Source: Myxococcota bacterium (GTDB lineage: Bacteria > Myxococcota_A > Polyangia > Polyangiales > Houyiibacteriaceae). From it: a stretch of DNA of 15,911 nucleotides. Both the position numbers and the translations under genes were made by a program. This document shows, one piece after another, positions 269 to 9,660 of the stretch (position 1 is its first letter; every line of letters begins with the position of its first letter). The stretch is taken from assembly GCA_039030515.1 (NCBI GenBank), contig JBCCEA010000057.1, positions 1 to 15,911 of the forward strand. Reading direction: 5' to 3'. The notes below the pieces were generated by a model. That model had not been told where the DNA came from, did no database searches, and saw only the letters and a program-made list of their open reading frames with translations.

Positions 269-2164
269 CTAGGGGGTCTGAATCGCCGTAGACGCAGTCC
301 CACTAGCGCCGTCACCGGGACCCAGCCGCTCAAAGATTGCACTGACCACGGTTTCCATATCCGCCTCGACCAGGCCGAGAAGCTGGGCGCCGCGGACGAC
401 ACGAAGGTCGGCAACCCTTCGCTCGACGTCTCCGCTTGGAAAGCCTTGCTGCTCTGCCAAAGCATTGGCGAAACAAATCACGTTCGAGACCGACCCGGCC
501 GCCGAGTCGTCGAAATCGTTGCCTCGACGAATCGCGGTGACTACCTGCGCCGGTAAATTCCAAGAGCTCGCGAGACTCTCACCGATGGCGCAAAAACAAG
601 ACTCGACGACATTTTGCCAGACGGAGGAGGTCATCCACTTGCTGTCTTCGCGCGTGATCATGCGTTCCGCCTCCAGCAGGAGCGCTCCGACGATCGGTTT
701 GCCGGCCTCATGAAGCAGACCGGCGATGTAGGCCTGCTCGGGCTCACTTGCCCCGATTCGTTGCGCTGTTTTTCGCGCTGCGGTCGCAACAGCGATCGAA
801 TGCTTCCAGATTCCCTGAAAAGACTGACGAATGCGGGGATTCTTTGAGTTGAAGACGGTGACCGCCGAAGCCTCGATCAAAATAGATTCGAGCTGGCGAC
901 TTCCGAGTCGTGAGGCGGCCTGCTCTAGAGTGTTGGCTCGCGTGGCCCCTCCATAAATGGCGCTATTGGCCCGCCGCAGCACCAGGCTCGCCAACATAGG
1001 GTCGCCCTCCAGTGCATTGGATACCTGGCTGTAGGTAAACTGAGGCCTCCGCAGAACGTTGAGACAATTAATGGCGGCCGACGGCATGACCGGAAGCTTG
1101 AGGCGACCGCCTTCCAAACGTTCGATCACGATGTTTTCGAGCTTGCCCGCAACCCGCTTGGGCTCGGCCACGGTGACCAGCTTCTCCTGGTCTAGATCCT
1201 CGTCGATCTCGTCTGGAACTTCGTCGAAGGGCTCCTCAAGCGGCGCTAGAGCGCCCTCAGACTTGAGTGGTTCCGAAGGCGTTTTTATCGCCGAGGCCCC
1301 AGGAGAGGCCGATTCCGATTCGAATGCATCCGGTCCGTCTTGCAAGGCCGCACGCAGGGTCGCCATCGACTCAAAGCGATCCTCTGGACGCTTGGCCAGG
1401 GTTCTCAGCACGAGTTGCTCTAACCAGGGAGAGACTTCCTGACGATGCTCGCGGAGCGGCTTCGGAGTTTCGCTGCAGTGGGCGAGTACGAGCTGGCCTA
1501 GGTGTTCGCTGGTAAACGGTACCGTGCCGGTAAGCATCTCGTAGCAAACGATCCCGAGGGAGTAGACGTCGGAGCGATGATCGAGATCTGCCGAACCGAT
1601 GGCTTGCTCCGGCGACATATACCCTGGGGTACCGATCAACGTGCCGGGGATGGTCCGCCCTCCGGTTTCTTCTCGGACGAGTTTGGCGATACCAAAATCG
1701 AGCACTTTGACGAAGTTGGGATAGTCAGGATGGTTGGTCAGGAAGATATTTTCAGGCTTGAGATCTCGGTGAACTACGCCCTTTTCATGGGCAGCACCGA
1801 CGGCCGCGGCAATCTGCATCACCATCGCAACGACATCTTCCTCCGGCAGCGGACCGAGACGCGCCATCCTCTCCTGCAGGGTTTCCCCCTCGAGGAGCTC
1901 CATGACGATGTAGTAGCGCTCTTCAAGCTGACCGAAATCGGTGATTTCAACGATGTTCGGATGCCGAATCTCGTTGACTGACCGCGCTTCCGCTAAAAAT
2001 CGCTCGACCACTTCGGCATTGGCGGAAAATTCACTCCGAATGAACTTGATGGCAGCACGTCTGGCGATGGTGGTGTGCTCTGCGAAAAACACTTCACCCA
2101 TCCCGCCGGCACCAAGCTCGGTGACGATCCGATAACTACCAACGATGCTGCCGTTCTCAAGCAT
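269..2164 (-). CDS. Hanks-type Ser/Thr protein kinase fused to a C-terminal HDOD domain (631 aa)
   Basis: Kinase motifs LGAGGMGEV, AAIK, HRDLKPEN, DFG, GTPGYMSPE and DVYSLG. An acidic/Pro linker is followed by HDOD hallmarks LPVMP, DPMLASLVLRRANSAIYG, AASRLG, WKHSIAVA and AYIAGLLHEAGK. No transmembrane segment is evident. Confidence 0.92.
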   Translation of the reverse strand: MLENGSIVGSYRIVTELGAGGMGEVFFAEHTTIARRAAIKFIRSEFSANAEVVERFLAEARSVNEIRHPNIVEITDFGQLEERYYIVMELLEGETLQERMARLGPLPEEDVVAMVMQIAAAVGAAHEKGVVHRDLKPENIFLTNHPDYPNFVKVLDFGIAKLVREETGGRTIPGTLIGTPGYMSPEQAIGSADLDHRSDVYSLGIVCYEMLTGTVPFTSEHLGQLVLAHCSETPKPLREHRQEVSPWLEQLVLRTLAKRPEDRFESMATLRAALQDGPDAFESESASPGASAIKTPSEPLKSEGALAPLEEPFDEVPDEIDEDLDQEKLVTVAEPKRVAGKLENIVIERLEGGRLKLPVMPSAAINCLNVLRRPQFTYSQVSNALEGDPMLASLVLRRANSAIYGGATRANTLEQAASRLGSRQLESILIEASAVTVFNSKNPRIRQSFQGIWKHSIAVATAARKTAQRIGASEPEQAYIAGLLHEAGKPIVGALLLEAERMITREDSKWMTSSVWQNVVESCFCAIGESLASSWNLPAQVVTAIRRGNDFDDSAAGSVSNVICFANALAEQQGFPSGDVERRVADLRVVRGAQLLGLVEADMETVVSAIFERLGPGDGASGTASTAIQTP

Positions 2165-2331: not shown

Positions 2332-4761
2332 CTAGGTCTCACCGTGTTCATCAAATCCCAATCTGCTGGGGTACTGGGATACCCGCATGATGAACTTGGC
2401 TAAAGACTCGCAGAAATGCCCCCCCACTCGATGCGGGACCTGGTTTGCAGAGACTGACCGGAGTCTGAAGGGTCGATGTTCTGAAACGTCTGCGGAGGCG
2501 AGCGCGTGAAGCAGGGTAAAGACCAAACTCGGATCCAACTGTGTTTCTCTCTGTTCCACCGGCGGCGTCTGCAGTCTCGGCACAACAGGGCGACTATGGA
2601 CAGGACCCCTCGTTCCTGGGACCCGCGCCTTCAGGGCAGATCTAGGGAGCAACACGGGTCCGGAAGGCAGGGCAAAGCCAGGCAAAAAGGCAGGGTCAAG
2701 AGGCGGAACGGATCCAAAACACTCCACAAAATCGACAGGCAGGGCACATAGTCGCCGGCGAATTTCCTCAAGCCGGGGGATCAAGATACTCGAGTCGATA
2801 AACCACGCAGGCCAAAAACCAAAGCATTCTCGGACGGCTCTTTGGAGTCTGGATTGTAGTTCTGGGGAGCGCGAGGATGCTTGGACGATCTCGAGGGTCA
2901 GATCGATGCGTCTTTTGGCTTCATGCCCAGCCACCTCAGCCAAATTTTTTAGATAAGGCTCGGGTAGTGGAACCTCAGACTGACTTAGAAACTGATGAGG
3001 CAGGATGCGACGCCAGGGTCGCCCATAGGGTTCTTGAACCGCAAACACATTGAGTTCGTCATCGGGCGACACCAAGCCTGGAATGAGACGTTCCTGTCTA
3101 GGACTTGTAGGATCCGAGAATCCAACGCTCCGAACCGGTGGTCCGCACGAAGCCTCTAATGCGACATGTCCCCACGCTGGCTCCATGGAAGGCGTGTCTT
3201 CTTGGTTGAAGGCGATGAGCGCCAAACGGTTCACGCAGTGTCTTAAGCAGCACTCTGAGTAGCTCAGAGTGCTGTCGACAAAATCGATCACTTGTTTCGC
3301 TGTTTGGGGGTTTGCGCGATTCGAGGTCTTTTGGACGTACCCTAACGTCCACTGCCTCTCCTTATAAGCAAGATCACGCACTCGAGAGACAACTGAATTA
3401 ATCGCTTTGCGAAGCAGGACCGTGGATTGCGTCATTGGGTCTTGAGCGCCGAGATTGTTTGTATCAGATGCATCGTCCAGGGCGTCATCTCCGACTCGAA
3501 AATAAAATCGAAAGCCGTTTTCGGTTTTGACGATAGCGCCTTTTGGTTTACCGAGCGGAGACAGGTCTGTGTCGGGATGTTCCGCTTGCCGCCAAGACCT
3601 ACTCGCGTTTTGTTTGCTACTCGCAGCCCAGCTCAATCTGCGAAGAGTCGATTCTTTGCGAGTGCACCGAACCACGTGATGCAACTCGCACCGAATTGTA
3701 GAACCATCAGACATCTCGTCGGCTCGCAACCCGAGCTTCTGGGTCATCTTGACGGACGAAAAAACCCATGCTTGCAGCAGTCCCTCGTTCCAGTCGAGAA
3801 TGTTTTCCAGATTTTCGACATACCTCCCATCCTTGAAACCATGCGGGGCAGCGGATGAGGTTCCGACTGGGCGAAAAGCCGTCCCTGTTTGAGGGAGACA
3901 GCACAGCCGCTCGAACAAGGGGAGCGAACTCCGACACGAATCAGTCGAGCCAGAGGTAAAGGGGTGCTGTGGCTGTGAAGGCGGAAGACATTCGAGGATC
4001 CGGACTTGAGTCGATTGGCGTGCACTCAGAGCATGAGGTGGACGCCCATTGGAATGGGTTGGGCACGCTTTGGAGCGGTTGTCATTGGGAGGCGGAACCG
4101 ACAGTGGATCCCGCTTTGAGCACGTCGCCACACCGGACCGAAACACGCTTGCCCGATTGGATAGCGCGCCTTGCGCATCGAGTAGCGATTTGAGAGCCGC
4201 CTTGAGGGGAGAAAACTGATAAAGATGCGTTTTTTGTTGTTCTCGGAACCGACAACACCGATCGATAAAACACTTCACAGAAACGTCAAAGGCAGCCCAG
4301 GCGGAAGAAGAAGAGATCCTTAGGCTCCCCATCGGTCCGCTACGCTTGGCACTATCGACAAACTTCGACGACCACACGTAAAAGCAAACTGCGAGTTCGC
4401 CAAAAATGCGTAGACGCTCCAGATTCAGATGCGAAGAGTCTCGCTGCAAAGAAGAGCTCGCCGCGCGATAGCAATCGAAGAGCTGGTCCATAATTCTTAT
4501 AGGGTTGTAGTCCTTGGTTTCGTAGATGGGTAAACCGCTTGAATATGATTGAAATAGGATAAGACGATCACGCACTTCTCGACCGAGAGTAAGAAAGCTG
4601 TCAAGACGGCGAAGCGGGGAGTCTGGACGAATCACGTCACCGAAGAGACATCTGTGCAAATCAGTCCAAGCAGCTTCGAGCTCCGTCGAATCTGGACTTG
4701 TGAGTTGTGAAAGGCTGAGCGGACCGTACTGCATATTCGTCATGTCTACGTATTCGCCCAA
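2332..4761 (-). CDS. Hypothetical protein, 809 aa (paralogue A of an unrecognised tandem pair); TTG start, alternative ATG at 4743
   Basis: A 2.4 kb uninterrupted ORF with an AGGA-like purine stretch upstream, starting 21 bp after the stop of the upstream ORF. It shows colinear similarity to 4783..6912. No family recognised. Confidence 0.8.
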   Translation of the reverse strand: MGEYVDMTNMQYGPLSLSQLTSPDSTELEAAWTDLHRCLFGDVIRPDSPLRRLDSFLTLGREVRDRLILFQSYSSGLPIYETKDYNPIRIMDQLFDCYRAASSSLQRDSSHLNLERLRIFGELAVCFYVWSSKFVDSAKRSGPMGSLRISSSSAWAAFDVSVKCFIDRCCRFREQQKTHLYQFSPLKAALKSLLDAQGALSNRASVFRSGVATCSKRDPLSVPPPNDNRSKACPTHSNGRPPHALSARQSTQVRILECLPPSQPQHPFTSGSTDSCRSSLPLFERLCCLPQTGTAFRPVGTSSAAPHGFKDGRYVENLENILDWNEGLLQAWVFSSVKMTQKLGLRADEMSDGSTIRCELHHVVRCTRKESTLRRLSWAASSKQNASRSWRQAEHPDTDLSPLGKPKGAIVKTENGFRFYFRVGDDALDDASDTNNLGAQDPMTQSTVLLRKAINSVVSRVRDLAYKERQWTLGYVQKTSNRANPQTAKQVIDFVDSTLSYSECCLRHCVNRLALIAFNQEDTPSMEPAWGHVALEASCGPPVRSVGFSDPTSPRQERLIPGLVSPDDELNVFAVQEPYGRPWRRILPHQFLSQSEVPLPEPYLKNLAEVAGHEAKRRIDLTLEIVQASSRSPELQSRLQRAVRECFGFWPAWFIDSSILIPRLEEIRRRLCALPVDFVECFGSVPPLDPAFLPGFALPSGPVLLPRSALKARVPGTRGPVHSRPVVPRLQTPPVEQRETQLDPSLVFTLLHALASADVSEHRPFRLRSVSANQVPHRVGGHFCESLAKFIMRVSQYPSRLGFDEHGET

Positions 4762-4782
4762 GCCTTCCTATTAATTTGCTTG

Positions 4783-6912
4783 TTAATCGCTCGTGGTGCC
4801 CCATTCGAGGACGAACTGAGTCACGTTCTTGGGTGAAATTCGCTCCCTCATCATCTCGCTAGTTAAGTTCCATCGGAGCACCTTAGTCGCGAGTGCAAAG
4901 ATTAGTTCACGGACGAAACGTGGCTCCAAATCAGGCTGACCGTGGCTGTACGACGTATGCTCAGCAGAGGCTTGCTCATCTCGCTGATATTGGGCAACTT
5001 GGTCGATCATTCCTTGCAGACTATGTTGCAGTTTCGGAGTGTCGTTAGCGCCCTTGAAGTAGTGAGGCATCATATGGGGATTACGAGTCAGTGTATTTTT
5101 CGCAGACTGCATCTGTGCGATGGCCAGATCGCCTGCGAGCAGGACCATTTGCTTGATGTGTTCGCTTTCAAATCCTCTCTGACCAATCGACGAGCCTTCA
5201 GGGATCCACGAAGGCGGAGGCGTCCCCTCTGTAGCGTAGGGACCGGCATTGGGCAGGATCCAGCGTATCGAAGTGCTTACTAGACCATAAGCTTGTGGTG
5301 CGGCAGCGCCGCTCGTTGGTGCCAGGCTATTACTTGGTGGCAGCTCGCTCGTAAAACGAACACTTTTCGAGGCGGGGTAAGTTCGAGGGTCATGGCTATT
5401 GAGCTGCCTGCGCGAACGTTCGGCTTGACGATGAAGTGTACCTGCTGGATTGCCGCGAGGCTCTGTGCGTTCTGTCGCGATATGACTTCTTAAGGCAGAG
5501 GCAAAACGACATGCGGACTTGTTCAGAATTATCGCCGCGTCCCGGAGCTCGGAAAGGACGCCTCGCTGTTCGTTTGTGAGATGGGCTTTTTTTCGACCTG
5601 CAGCTTTAGCCAGAAAAAGAGTCAGATCCTTTATCGGTATCGAAAGAGACACGATCGCCTGAATAAGGGCGCTCGACCTATCGTGCAATAAGCTCATCCA
5701 TTCCGGACTGCACTCTGGCCGGCCCGCTGCATCGCTAAAGCGGCAGAACATGATCGCCCTGCGGGCACCCTCAACAGTTTCCACCAGTGCCACTGATCCG
5801 GTCAGATCACGTGGGAGAAAATCGCTGATGCTGGAGACAGGTTGCTTGTAATCGCGTTTAGGGTCGAATTCCTGCACCCGATCATCGGTATCGCTCCAAG
5901 GATTCCTCATCGCCTTTCCGGCAGTCCACCTGAATGAATGGAAACCATCGCACTTGGGATCTCTCACCATGAAAGCGTCGAGATTGTAGTTTATCGTTCG
6001 GTCCGCAATTCGTTTGGGGAGCGAGAGACATTTAAACTCGATCGGTACCGACCAACGCTCGACCCAGGGAGAGGAAATCCACGCACGCCTGAACGCCTGA
6101 AAATCACTGAGTGATCCTAGTATCATTGAACTCGACACCCCTATCGCAGGGGGGAGGTTATGCGCTTCACCCAACCAAAGAAGACCCTCAGTGAGGCAGA
6201 GTAGTTGCTCCGCACTCTGGCTCACTATAGTTGATTGTCCGCCCTGGGCACTTCCAGCCCCAGCATGCTGCCATTGTGGCCCAATCGGAGTCTGTGACGG
6301 CGGCGGTGGAGCTTTGTATTTTAACAAGCAATCGCGGAAGTATTCTGCATGAATCTCGGTTAGCAGCCGGGCCCCTAAAAGCGAGACGCGAGGCAACCTC
6401 AGTTTCGGTTTCCCCTCGGTGGGGCGACGCGGAGGCGAAGATGCCTTCCCGCAGTCCACATCGAGCTCAGACAAAAGAAGAACCAGGCAATGCTGAATCT
6501 CAGTTAGGCGTGTATGTTGAGGACTGAGTGACTGCTGACTAAGAGCCTGGGCATCGCGGGCGAAGTGAGACGCCTGAGCCGAGTGAGGAGCATGGCCTAT
6601 GCCCTTTTCAAGAGTGCCGAGTTGCTCTCTGACGCTTTTGTATATCGACAGCAGCTTTGTAAGCAGCTCGTGCATTGACTGGATCAGCTGTGAACTTGCC
6701 GAGTCAGACTCCGGATATTCTTCCTTCTCAGCTACCCATTCAATCCATTTGTCGAATGAATCACTCAGTTGATTCAACTCACTTTGCAAAGTGGGGCTAT
6801 TCGGTGTGCCCTCTAAACAACACTGTTTGGCTAAGTCGAGTAGAGCGTTCCAAACACGCTTCAGCACTTCTGATCGCCTATTCTGTGATCGCCTATTCTG
6901 CGGGCTCATCAT
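4783..6912 (-). CDS. Hypothetical protein, about 709 aa (paralogue B); ATG at 6912 or 6909 preferred over TTG at 6942
   Basis: A 2.1 kb uninterrupted ORF with an in-frame 15-bp tandem duplication near the N-terminus and colinear similarity to 2332..4761. No family recognised; the start is uncertain. Confidence 0.8.
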   Translation of the reverse strand: MMSPQNRRSQNRRSEVLKRVWNALLDLAKQCCLEGTPNSPTLQSELNQLSDSFDKWIEWVAEKEEYPESDSASSQLIQSMHELLTKLLSIYKSVREQLGTLEKGIGHAPHSAQASHFARDAQALSQQSLSPQHTRLTEIQHCLVLLLSELDVDCGKASSPPRRPTEGKPKLRLPRVSLLGARLLTEIHAEYFRDCLLKYKAPPPPSQTPIGPQWQHAGAGSAQGGQSTIVSQSAEQLLCLTEGLLWLGEAHNLPPAIGVSSSMILGSLSDFQAFRRAWISSPWVERWSVPIEFKCLSLPKRIADRTINYNLDAFMVRDPKCDGFHSFRWTAGKAMRNPWSDTDDRVQEFDPKRDYKQPVSSISDFLPRDLTGSVALVETVEGARRAIMFCRFSDAAGRPECSPEWMSLLHDRSSALIQAIVSLSIPIKDLTLFLAKAAGRKKAHLTNEQRGVLSELRDAAIILNKSACRFASALRSHIATERTEPRGNPAGTLHRQAERSRRQLNSHDPRTYPASKSVRFTSELPPSNSLAPTSGAAAPQAYGLVSTSIRWILPNAGPYATEGTPPPSWIPEGSSIGQRGFESEHIKQMVLLAGDLAIAQMQSAKNTLTRNPHMMPHYFKGANDTPKLQHSLQGMIDQVAQYQRDEQASAEHTSYSHGQPDLEPRFVRELIFALATKVLRWNLTSEMMRERISPKNVTQFVLEWGTTSD
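6871..6900. repeat. Perfect 2 x 15 bp tandem duplication (tgatcgcctattctg), encoding QNRRS-QNRRS
   Basis: Read directly from the sequence. Confidence 0.95.
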
Positions 6913-7163
6913 CGTGAGGCTGACTGAAACGGCAGGCAGCAATGCAGCGACTGTCGAGATGCCAGCGATCTATCGCGACTCATACGAGCACTCGATTTCA
7001 CAGCAGAAGTCGCTTCCACAAAAGTCGGGTGCGGTATGTCGACAACGCTCGAGACGTTTCGTTATTCATGAGGCTTACACACTCTAAGGCCTAATCTAGC
7101 ATCGAATATCGGAAGCGCGAACGGCGCTCTCTTGGTGCGTAGTGAGAGAAACGCTAGGCAGCG

Positions 7164-7290
7164 CGACCACCGGCCGGGACTTATCGGGCAGGCGCGAAGC
7201 TCCGCAGCCGCCTTGCGAACCTGAGCATCGCAGATCGAGAGCCCGGCAACCGCGGGACCGTCAGGGCATCAAGACTGCCCCGACTGGTCG
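7164..7290 (+). other. Intergenic structured element (candidate ncRNA or degenerate palindromic repeat)
   Basis: Stem gccggg(7173-78)/cccggc(7242-47) encloses cagg/cctg and cgcga/ttgcg stems with G-U pairs on the + strand. A second hairpin is gtcagggca(7260-68)/tgccccgac(7276-84), and cgacca(7164-69)/tggtcg(7285-90) may close the structure. Confidence 0.35.
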
Positions 7291-7710
7291 AGACTCTTGG
7301 AATTTGGCCGGTAGCCTGAAGACCAACCGGACGATCGGCCCGCAGAATGCGATTCCGGTTGGGGCGAATAGACCCCAGTGATCCCATCGAATGCGCACCT
7401 ACACCTGCAGGGCCAAATGAAGATGTATTTCAGTCGATTACAGATATCGCGAACCTGAGACTGGGGTGAGAAAACTCCACCCGTGCACACGAGTGACCAA
7501 TAAAGTAGCCGCTTATTTATAATTCGATTCCTGCCCACGGCGCAATAAGCGCGCTATAGTACCTATTCAAGCGATTCGAATGCTCAGAATCCGACTGAAA
7601 CCCGAGACAAAAAGATACTTAGGCGTCAATAACGCGCGAATAAACACAAAATTGTGATTTACGAAACTCGATCCTCTCACAAGACCGTAAGACCTCCTAT
7701 AGTTTGCAAG

Positions 7711-9660
7711 ATGTTGCGGAAGATTCCGTCGTTGAGCGTCGTTGCAGCCAGCCTTTTGGCAGCCAGCGGATGCGCTTCGTCATCTTCTGCGCGGCCATTG
7801 GGGCAGCCACACACGGCAACTAGAGTTGAGATGCCGCGGTTTTCTCGTTGGACCAATGAGGCCGCGGAAGGCATCGGCCATATCGATTTTGGAATCCTCC
7901 TCGTCGACCACTGGGAGTGGACGATGGAGCAGTACCCGGTCACGGCGACCCAACATGGCGACCGGCGTTATGACGATCGCCTGCGAGACGCTTCTCATCA
8001 GGCGATCCAGACGCGACACGGGGCTCGGCTGAGGTTTCTTGAGCGGACACAAGCGATCAACCCGACCGAGTTCGAAAGTGAGCTCGAGCGATTTACCTTC
8101 GCACTCTTTCGGGAACGACTCCAAGCCGAGGTCGACGCTGAGATTTGCGCTCTCGACACCTGGAGCCTCAACGCCTTCAACAACGTACTGCGGGAAATCG
8201 ACCAGCTACGCACCTTCCACCATATCGCCACCCCTTACGATGCACGAAGTCTGGTGGCTCGGTACCGGGCCGTTCCCCGATACTTGCGGCAGCGTATCGA
8301 CCAGCTGAACCGAGGACGACGCGAAGGCCGCCTAGCGAGTGCAAAAACAATCGAGAACATCGTGGCGCTGCTCCGAGGGCAGCTAGCCGTCCCGTTCGAG
8401 CAATGGGTTTTGCTGGAACCGCTCACCCGAGACCATCCCACCTGGCCCTACGCGGCGCGCACGGGTTTTGTGCACGACCTCACCGTGGCGGTCCGCGATC
8501 ATGTGATCCCCTCTGTCGAGGAATACGCCAACTTCTTAGAGTTTGAGCTTCTGCCGTCCGCACGCGAGCTGGTGCAGACAGAGGGCTTGACCGGACTGCC
8601 CGAGGGAGAAGCCTGTTACGCGTCTCTCATCCGACTGTTCACTGGGCAAAATACGTCCGCCCAAGAATTGCACCGAGTGGGAACCGAGGAGATCGAGCGA
8701 ATTCACGCCGAGATCGCAGACCTCGGGCAAGATCTCTTTGGAATCTCCGCACCAGCAGAAGTGCTGGAGCACCTGCGATCCGACCGCTCTCTTTTTTTTG
8801 AAAGCGAAGAGGAAATCGAGGCGACTACCCGCGCTGCAGTGGCCGCTGCTACCTCCAGAGCGACGGCGTTCTTCGATGCCCTGCCCACAACACCCCTCGT
8901 AGTGCAGCGGATACCCGACTATGAAGCGCCGTACACGGCGATTGGGTACTACCGGGCCCCCAATCCCGACGGCACCAAGCCGGGCGAGTTCTTCATCAAC
9001 ACCTTCGACCCCAGTCGACGTCCTCGATATGCAACCGAGGTTCTCGCGTATCACGAGTCGATCCCAGGACATCATCTGCAGGTAGCGATCGCCCAAGAGC
9101 TTCAGGCACTTCCGGCGTTCCGTCGCCATGCAGAACTCACCGTCTTTGGCGAGGGTTGGGCGCTGTACACCGAGCGGCTAGCGGATGAAATGGGTCTTTA
9201 TTCTTCTGCCCTCGATCGCATGGGCATGCTGGCGTTTGACGCTTGGCGCGCGGCCCGGCTGGTGGTCGACACGGGACTGCACTCCTTTGGTTGGACCCGA
9301 GAGGAAGCTGTCGACTACCTCACTCAACACACGGCGCTTCCCTTGGCCACGGCTGAAAACGAAGTGGACCGGTATATTTCTTGGCCTGGACACGCCCTAG
9401 CCTACAAGGTGGGTCAACTGGCGATATTGCGACTTCGTGACGAAGCCGTGCGCACGCTCGGACCCTACTTTGACATTCGCAAGTTTCACACCGCTGTCCT
9501 CGGCGGCGGACCGGTCACCATCCCTCTGCTCGAGCGAAGAGTGCACGCCTGGATCGCCCGAGAACAGCGAAGAAATCAGCAAACGGGACACGCCGCAAGC
9601 GTATGGGGAGTTCGGCTGGGACGCAGCGTGCAGGCTGAATCCAAGGAAACCGGATTTTAG
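7711..9660 (+). CDS. DUF885 family lipoprotein (putative zinc metallopeptidase-like)
   Basis: Family motifs YHESIPGHHLQ, EGWALYTE, WRAARLVVDTGLH, EVDRY and PGHALAYKVG. Starting at ATG 7711 gives a signal peptide with lipobox ASG-C21, which is preferred over GTG 7654. Confidence 0.92.
   Translation: MLRKIPSLSVVAASLLAASGCASSSSARPLGQPHTATRVEMPRFSRWTNEAAEGIGHIDFGILLVDHWEWTMEQYPVTATQHGDRRYDDRLRDASHQAIQTRHGARLRFLERTQAINPTEFESELERFTFALFRERLQAEVDAEICALDTWSLNAFNNVLREIDQLRTFHHIATPYDARSLVARYRAVPRYLRQRIDQLNRGRREGRLASAKTIENIVALLRGQLAVPFEQWVLLEPLTRDHPTWPYAARTGFVHDLTVAVRDHVIPSVEEYANFLEFELLPSARELVQTEGLTGLPEGEACYASLIRLFTGQNTSAQELHRVGTEEIERIHAEIADLGQDLFGISAPAEVLEHLRSDRSLFFESEEEIEATTRAAVAAATSRATAFFDALPTTPLVVQRIPDYEAPYTAIGYYRAPNPDGTKPGEFFINTFDPSRRPRYATEVLAYHESIPGHHLQVAIAQELQALPAFRRHAELTVFGEGWALYTERLADEMGLYSSALDRMGMLAFDAWRAARLVVDTGLHSFGWTREEAVDYLTQHTALPLATAENEVDRYISWPGHALAYKVGQLAILRLRDEAVRTLGPYFDIRKFHTAVLGGGPVTIPLLERRVHAWIAREQRRNQQTGHAASVWGVRLGRSVQAESKETGF

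Follow-up and report, generated by a model that had tools for sequence, protein, structure and literature searches.

Why does a Myxococcota genome keep two large, adjacent genes that resemble no catalogued protein? The question is raised by contig JBCCEA010000057.1 of a Myxococcota bacterium from the Houyiibacteriaceae (NCBI GenBank assembly GCA_039030515.1), a stretch of 15,911 nucleotides hereafter called the window, whose minus strand carries two long open reading frames (ORFs), A and B. The genome it belongs to (G000) measures 4.08 Mb, with 85% completeness and 57% GC, and the window is its contig C57. The original prediction, made from the letters alone, took A and B for diverged paralogues and a candidate undescribed two-gene system. 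Both ORFs are real genes and the locus is hypervariable. The tentative reading is that both belong to a repertoire of conflict proteins that is private to the lineage and evolves rapidly, and that they are most likely effectors directed at eukaryotic cells.

Two intact genes with atypical codon use

Each ORF offers more than one start, and the two-gene layout at the longest frames, two same-strand ORFs 21 bp apart, is as first described:

4783..6942, minus strand: ORF A, longest frame, from a TTG at 6942 (719 amino acids)
4783..6912, minus strand: ORF A from its ATG starts (708 amino acids from the ATG at 6909, 709 from the ATG at 6912)
2332..4761, minus strand: ORF B, longest frame, from a TTG at 4761 (809 amino acids)
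2332..4743, minus strand: ORF B from the ATG at 4743 (803 amino acids)
4744..4782, minus strand: A-B junction, 21 bp from the stop of A to the TTG of B and 39 bp to its ATG

Over 2.1 and 2.4 kb, base composition would leave such a frame open with a chance of about 1e-13 for each ORF (log10 P(open) -13.1 and -13.6), and the other five frames hold 22-39 stops each in both cases. The open frame also has the best codon score of the six, though a weak one (near the 5th percentile for genes in this genome), so a shadow ORF or wrong-strand artefact is ruled out. The locus was found in four runs (X1 to X4) of one marine study, from which all variation data are taken. No RNA data set was listed with the locus, which is uninformative about expression. 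One X1 contig covers 311-9492 without a difference, although it may be the source of the assembly, and X2 and X3 contain identical pieces, which rules out an assembly artefact.

Codon use sets the pair apart, with the 24th and 63rd lowest codon adaptation among 741 long ORFs. Composition is shifted towards Ser, Pro and Cys (Ser 10.8 and 10.9%), and recognition by a protein language model is low (1422 and 1231). Public annotations differ in how they treat the two genes. One set of gene calls has full-length A (709 amino acids) and B (803 amino acids), and another has only the C-terminal 375 amino acids of A (4783-5910) and 367 of B (2332-3435), which shows that gene callers truncate these low-codon-bias genes.

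Variation in co-occurring populations

The original prediction expected rapid divergence of the kind seen in conflict gene families, and this is directly supported by a related population in run X4. Across five X4 contigs of flanking genes there are 84 differences in 4596 sites (1.8%). In the two contigs that cover A and the A/B junction, 145 of 1264 sites differ (11.5%), which is 6.3 times the flanking rate, although these X4 contigs are of low depth, come from a single study, lack codon positions and are not physically joined to the flank contigs. A further X4 contig, which covers the upstream spacer and the first part of the neighbouring DUF885 gene, has 28 differences in 580 sites (4.8%). 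The comparison was based on the 32 longest of 1076 pieces, with all eight X4 rows among those used. The diverged parts of the locus are:

4592..6001: hypervariable stretch, in which the X4 contig at 4592-5136 has 68 differences in 545 sites and 2 gaps
5283-6001: second X4 contig of that stretch, 77 differences in 719 sites and 4 gaps
3085..4581: diverged part of B (about residues 55-553), matched in short patches only by one X2 contig of depth 6.5

The depth of the X4 bins equals that of a single contig at 5201-6000 (4.28) and at 8401-8800 (4.22), which fits one population. Since the contig at 4592-5136 spans the junction, the order of A and B is kept in this relative. X4 cover is absent at 3201-4400, and that interval was not used as evidence. 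The X2 contig joins across 3085-3169, 3237-4137 and 4188-4581, the letters between these patches not being known, and its B allele is strongly diverged or internally deleted. In a second assembly, the last 367 residues of B have 2 changes. A patchy X2 allele alongside a near-identical C-terminal half of B suggests mosaic alleles. The locus is thus hypervariable, and it is probably mosaic.

Searches for relatives

A and B had been said to belong to no recognisable family, and this holds in every library tried: nothing was found above cut-off for either protein in Pfam, NCBIfam, PADLOC, PHROGs or PDB sequences. Pfam returned nothing at all for B and a sub-threshold match to COMMD1_N for A (E 0.011). 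In a set of 5.8 billion sequences, no match was found at lengths near those of A and B (longer fused forms were not searched), and an alignment of A with B, run at shorter lengths, recovered only the 375-amino-acid fragment of A itself. Likewise, B as query against 1.84 billion representatives recovered only its own fragment. No homologue of either protein was found in collections of metagenome and genome contigs, nor was there a match in viral contigs, in plasmids (A as query) or in phages (B as query).

Genome searches covered samples of the order, family and phylum. There was no match in 400 genomes of the order (core alignment) or 87 of the family (A core), and none in 300 phylum genomes for A or in 300 for B. 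A match to A in one genome among 60 relatives searched (G022; E 2e-6) was rejected, being antisense to another gene and containing a stop. No second locus with an A-B pair was found in the contig, order or phylum searches, and BLAST, profile and order-wide genome searches revealed no third copy of A or B in the genome. The source genome is the sole member of its genus among the family genomes compared.

Predicted architecture of A and B

Single-sequence AlphaFold2 models of A and B have a mean predicted local distance difference test (pLDDT) score of 38.3 and 36.8, respectively, so that only the rough order of helices is usable for A, and both models are too poor for a meaningful fold search. 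Read in that way, the predicted domains are:

A, residues ~3-197: helical N-domain, followed by a Pro/Ser linker
A, residues ~260-400: mixed core with short strands
A, residues 412-504: long helices, followed by a linker
A, residues 575-703: helical C-domain
B, residues ~20-209: helical N-domain, followed by a Pro/Ser linker and a core with a strand pair at 403-415
B, residues 436-516: helical hairpin, followed by a linker
B, residues 595-790: helical C-domain

Foldseek and VIA-align searches with these low-pLDDT models (37-38) gave generic helical hairpin matches only, and the top viral structure match (rmsd 51 A) was dismissed as meaningless. Scans of patterns and hydrophobicity agree with the earlier observation that A and B lack a signal peptide, transmembrane helix, P-loop or familiar catalytic motif. 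No signal-peptide-like stretch and no hydrophobic stretch of transmembrane strength occurs in either (maximum 19-residue Kyte-Doolittle means 1.63 and 1.12), and neither has a P-loop, HExxH, CxxC, PD-(D/E)xK, HKD or GxGxxG pattern.

Are A and B paralogues?

The claim of paralogy was built on 14 pairs of short blocks (marked B/A, yet with the upstream ORF, 6912, given first). All 14 are present and in the same order in both proteins, with offsets of 6, 2, 51, 44, 49, 44, 44, 29, 26, 29, 29, 13, 2 and 75, and several lie on a common diagonal (44, 44, 44 and 29, 29, 29). The alternative is that A and B are unrelated orphans lying side by side, and that the blocks were picked by eye from helical, Ser/Pro-rich proteins. 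This alternative cuts across all functional readings and is compatible with any of them.

Standard tools do not lift the end-to-end likeness above chance, which speaks against a duplication. BLASTP of A against B gave a best E of 0.06, and hhalign a probability of 0.07%. The Smith-Waterman score was 56 against 43.2±5.6 for shuffled sequences (maximum 82 in 500 shuffles), and z ranged from -0.3 to 2.3 over nine alignment scoring schemes; the alignment check by shuffle statistics therefore failed. A composition-adjusted pair hidden Markov model (pair-HMM), which sums over all alignments, was likewise not significant with BLOSUM matrices (z 0.1-1.4). Its posterior reached 0.3 for 4 of the 14 blocks, leaving 10 below that value and none at 0.5, so the residue-by-residue alignment is uncertain.

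Softer tests lend the likeness weak to moderate support. With the Gonnet matrix, the pair-HMM gave z 2.2-3.0 under three kinds of shuffle, and this setting was picked for calibration after its z result had been seen. Calibrated against 110 comparisons with 55 other low-codon-bias proteins of similar length (mean excess 1.5, standard deviation 3.4), the A-B excess of 10.3 ranked 3rd of 111, outscored by two unrelated proteins (11.4 and 10.6). There are 41 adjacent same-strand low-codon-bias pairs in the genome, and BLAST detects similarity (E<=1e-4) in 13 of the 40 others; among the 28 pairs invisible to BLAST, A-B ranks second by pair-HMM, behind a pair in a WD40 array. For scale, 20 of 45 pairs within one family of the genome are missed by BLAST (E above 0.01) and score 3.4-27.7 (median 13.9). 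When sequence was combined with predicted secondary structure, none of 120 block shuffles reached the A-B score in any of six settings, while with secondary structure alone 2-5 of 120 did so. The secondary structure comes from two independent single-sequence models with pLDDT under 40, and the block-shuffle null also breaks the order of helices and linkers, which unrelated helical proteins may share. A and B are alike in size, Ser content and helix order, and tandem paralogues are common among such genes in the genome. On these alignment and shuffle figures, the old duplication is likely, and two unrelated neighbours are the less probable account.

A genome-wide repertoire of orphans

The pair is not special in its genome. 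In size, composition and codon use, A and B match a whole class of low-bias orphans, of which there are dozens, many in tandem arrays. No Pfam family was found in 30 of 55 proteins from low-codon-bias regions (E 0.001), nor in 36 of 75 further such proteins (E 1e-5), these being 75 of the 99 lowest-bias genes outside the first scan. Since so many orphans stand in tandem, the adjacency of A and B is most simply a tandem duplication. Given these comparable arrays, the lack of a second locus and the lack of any known-system context, the proposal of an undescribed two-gene system is not supported.

One group is a family of 18 ORFs (14 seeds and 4 more matches at E<=1e-7). Its members are 420-660 amino acids long, some split or short. 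A helical N-region is followed by a Pro/Arg linker and then by a conserved C-terminal domain of 125 residues, in which W, H, F, H and Y columns are near-invariant; IQ motifs occur in three tandem paralogues. The family was found in none of 300 other genomes of the order and has no match in Pfam or PDB sequences. The last strands recall RelE-type ribonucleases, a likeness that no search supports. A and B resemble this family in size class, composition, low codon bias, tandem layout and lineage restriction, and two of its members give the best two non-partner pair-HMM scores for A and B. However, they lack its conserved C-terminal domain, and membership was rejected: A and B are matched neither by its C-terminal profiles (E<=5) nor by its full-length ones (E<=20), and the C-terminal alignment (A3) has no own-genome match on contig C57. 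By profile searches, A and B belong to none of the families within the low-codon-bias class. No convincing DNA motif common to the upstream regions of 170 low-codon-bias genes was found. Loci of the repertoire are:

G000 C22:35237-43067, C2:182394-188200, C35:769-9143, C6:26-1999, C6:94969-96753: 18-ORF family
C9:119517-121193, C17:24385-26256, C19:70596-76318, C29:29584-31578 and others; loci L004, L005, L007, L010, L015: 18-ORF family, continued
G000 C46:17495-26204 (L006): divergent tandem array of six genes, four with WD40-type matches and several with F-box-looking N-termini by eye
C19:69256-74143 (L007), C2:195785-197266 (L005), C29:47545-48804 (L066), C22:6296-7600 (L051): two DUF7790 proteins, leucine-rich repeat (LRR) protein, Fam20C-like kinase and partial TLC (ATP/ADP translocase family) match, all low-codon-bias genes
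C25:49527-54401, C26:16174-26832, C33:4800-7747, C6:75147-80824, C19:43458-46668: further orphan paralogue pairs, 400-820 amino acids, 24-37% identity, no Pfam

An F-box-like N-terminus was also noted on a WD40 protein at C25:13754-15082 (within C25:12445-15082, L052), with E 6e-4 and below cut-off. A search for ATP/ADP translocases found no match in the genome or in any control, although the Pfam scan gave one protein a partial TLC match.

On its own, the pair amounts to two unclassifiable proteins, and its value is that of a marker. In a natural population the locus turns over at about six times the rate of its neighbours, and it drew attention to the private, genome-wide set of tandem genes, some with eukaryote-type parts. 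That repertoire, the 18-ORF family above all, holds more promise than the pair, and alignment A3 is deep enough to fold. A literature search found no published description of such a repertoire in myxobacteria, subscription journals not being covered.

Effectors directed at eukaryotic cells?

In the favoured reading, an old tandem duplication would have given rise to A and B, which would be soluble proteins that the bacterium makes in its cytoplasm and sends as effectors into a eukaryotic cell, either a protist host or prey. As neither has a signal or membrane stretch or a common catalytic pattern, the simplest mode of action would be binding: helical bundles, connected by Pro/Ser linkers, would attach to host proteins, with no familiar catalytic site. 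Each copy would act alone, the pair being a two-member array and not an obligate machine. Secretion itself, its route (flagellar export, a type VI secretion system (T6SS) or a contact-dependent pilus system), the eukaryotic target and the binding mode are all conjectural. A eukaryotic target is pointed to by eukaryote-type parts elsewhere in the repertoire and by a parallel with Ca. Ichthyocystis and the Parachlamydiaceae.

In Ca. Ichthyocystis, intracellular fish pathogens, the families IchFam1-25 have up to about 100 members, with predicted type III and type IV secretion (T3/T4) signals (PMC4943182). They are lineage-restricted, mostly hypothetical or coiled-coil proteins, arranged in tandem, duplicated and diversified, with some decayed; they have been proposed as secreted effectors, and many members also lack domains (PMC4943182). 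A and B share the lineage restriction and the accelerated divergence between close relatives, and probably the origin by tandem duplication. However, their array has two members only, whose similarity is barely detectable. The myxobacterium that carries them is flagellated and has no known host, and its genome yielded neither an injectisome nor a type IV secretion system (T4SS). The NEX/PEX effectors of the Parachlamydiaceae, with F-box, U-box and BTB domains, are lineage-specific proteins that expanded by birth and death, partly in tandem (PMC4209131). The present genome likewise has a few proteins in that style, F-box-like/WD40 and LRR ones. NEX/PEX members have clear ubiquitination domains, about 77% similarity within NEX1a and demonstrated type III secretion system (T3SS) signals (PMC4209131), whereas A and B have no ubiquitination domain. 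A third comparison is with the "metagenomic island" genes that are hypervariable within natural populations of bacteria (PMC2800850). These likewise combine low codon bias with poor or diverged recruitment from co-occurring populations, between flanks that are 98-99% identical. Unlike those, A and B are kept in place as diverged alleles, over a 4.6-kb stretch with no surface-polysaccharide or mobile-element genes. The two proteins are novel in sequence, but the phenomenon is of a familiar kind, seen here in a lineage where it was not expected.

Several observations weigh against eukaryote-directed effectors. Neither A nor B has a eukaryote-type domain by Pfam or NCBIfam. The genome, at its 85% completeness, has a single FHIPEP match (the flagellar export gate) along with one FliF match and hence no non-flagellar T3SS gate, and no match to VirB4 or VirB10; a search for DotI gave no match in any control genome. 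The N-termini of 39 orphans showed no composition signal over and above the bias of the whole proteins. Among control genomes, 6 of 14 also give F-box matches at the level reported above, there are two ankyrin matches only, and free-living myxobacteria commonly have WD40, LRR, TPR and kinase domains. Moreover, the X4 divergence figure alone does not separate relaxed selection or allele exchange from positive selection.

Fast allele turnover fits any arms race, and A and B might instead be aimed at prokaryotes, either as anti-phage defence or as toxins that a T6SS or a Tad-like contact system would carry into bacterial prey or competitors. Myxobacteria prey on bacteria, and the genome has candidate machinery:

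G000 C32:23580-42206, C44:26595-30863, C47:13776-16868, C24:56082-58244: T6SS genes (three contigs), FHA-fused pilus-type ATPase

The T6SS genes lie on C32 and C44 and the VgrG-type matches on C1 and C47, all away from the A/B contig, and the match at C1:190604 sits among phage-like genes. In contrast to T6SS effector-immunity pairs, A and B have no delivery domain (Pfam) and no vgrG, PAAR or hcp linkage; the gene after A encodes 803 amino acids, and a small immunity gene is absent after B as well. Unlike two-gene anti-phage systems, they have no PADLOC family, do not recur as a pair and have a kinase-HDOD gene, a DUF885 gene and RecQ as neighbours, with no defence island, mobile context or VgrG locus. 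Defence systems usually spread widely by transfer, whereas A and B each occur in 0 of 300 phylum genomes and are missing from the plasmids, phages and viral contigs searched with them. A role against prokaryotes is thus considered unlikely. An obligate A-B heterodimer or two-gene machine is improbable. It would suit the 21-39 bp spacing with no terminator-like site between the genes, the order kept in the X4 relative and the fact that diverged paralogues often form heterodimers, but no independent locus demonstrates co-inheritance, a three-copy array of another family is equally tight (33 bp), and A and B diverge patchily and to different degrees.

Much the same low standing is given to the idea that A and B are relics under relaxed selection, acquired, once functional and now drifting towards pseudogenes. 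Their weak codon bias, shifted composition and low language-model recognition would agree with this, as would indels in the relative and split members in other arrays of the genome; however, both frames of 2.1-2.4 kb are intact, and drift alone would not give 11.5% divergence where the intergenic/5' contig has 4.8% and the genes 1.8%. Finally, B could be a remote helical protein like a gamma-tubulin complex component (GCP), mimicking a subunit of the eukaryotic microtubule nucleator. This idea stems from an ESM Atlas feature search, in which the best matches of B were all GCP clusters (score 0.85; 142 of 256 features common). Scores under 0.9 and recognition under 2300 are weak for this resource, though, and one third of shuffled proteins yield an equally consistent top ten. 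B has no GCP_C_terminal match at E<=10 and no match in Pfam or PDB sequences, and A has no Atlas match of any kind, which leaves GCP mimicry very improbable.

Returning to eukaryote-directed effectors, a broader and rather doubtful version extends the reading to the organism. This flagellated marine bacterium would live as a parasite, a symbiont or a predator of eukaryotic cells, and it would deliver its large private effector arsenal (IQ-motif proteins, F-box-like/WD40 arrays and the 18-member family with its new C-terminal domain) with no classical injectisome or T4SS. A and B would then be a duplicated effector pair of undescribed fold, their alleles swapped or driven apart by host selection in a population 98-99% identical elsewhere. 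Flagellar genes are present in the genome, and the metagenomes with the locus are marine (one study). Should the organism attack or inhabit protists, the phylum's known range of lifestyles would widen and new effector folds could be expected.

Neighbouring genes and other features

By the ORF list and Pfam, the gene order is kinase-HDOD, B, A, a divergent DUF885 gene and RecQ. The remaining features are:

269-2164, minus strand: Ser/Thr kinase-HDOD fusion gene, the next gene downstream of B (Pfam)
6871..6900: perfect 15-nt tandem duplication at the start of A, giving a five-residue unit twice
6943..7653: probable promoter region, the spacer between A and the divergent DUF885 gene

No sigma-70-like site was found on the minus strand of this spacer, and no terminator-like site between 2100 and 7300, A-B junction included. 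An AGGAAGG at 4769-4763 is too close to the TTG of B, and too far from its ATG, for a textbook ribosome site. The HDOD half of the kinase-HDOD gene has orthologues in 9 of 87 family genomes. In the three genomes with the closest scores, DUF885 and HDOD have their orthologues on separate contigs, which leaves no empty site to compare with the A/B locus. At the other end of interest, positions 1-192 of the window contain a 65-nt direct repeat with 127-bp spacing, located at the contig end and at very high metagenome depth, which is probably a multicopy REP-like element that broke the assembly.

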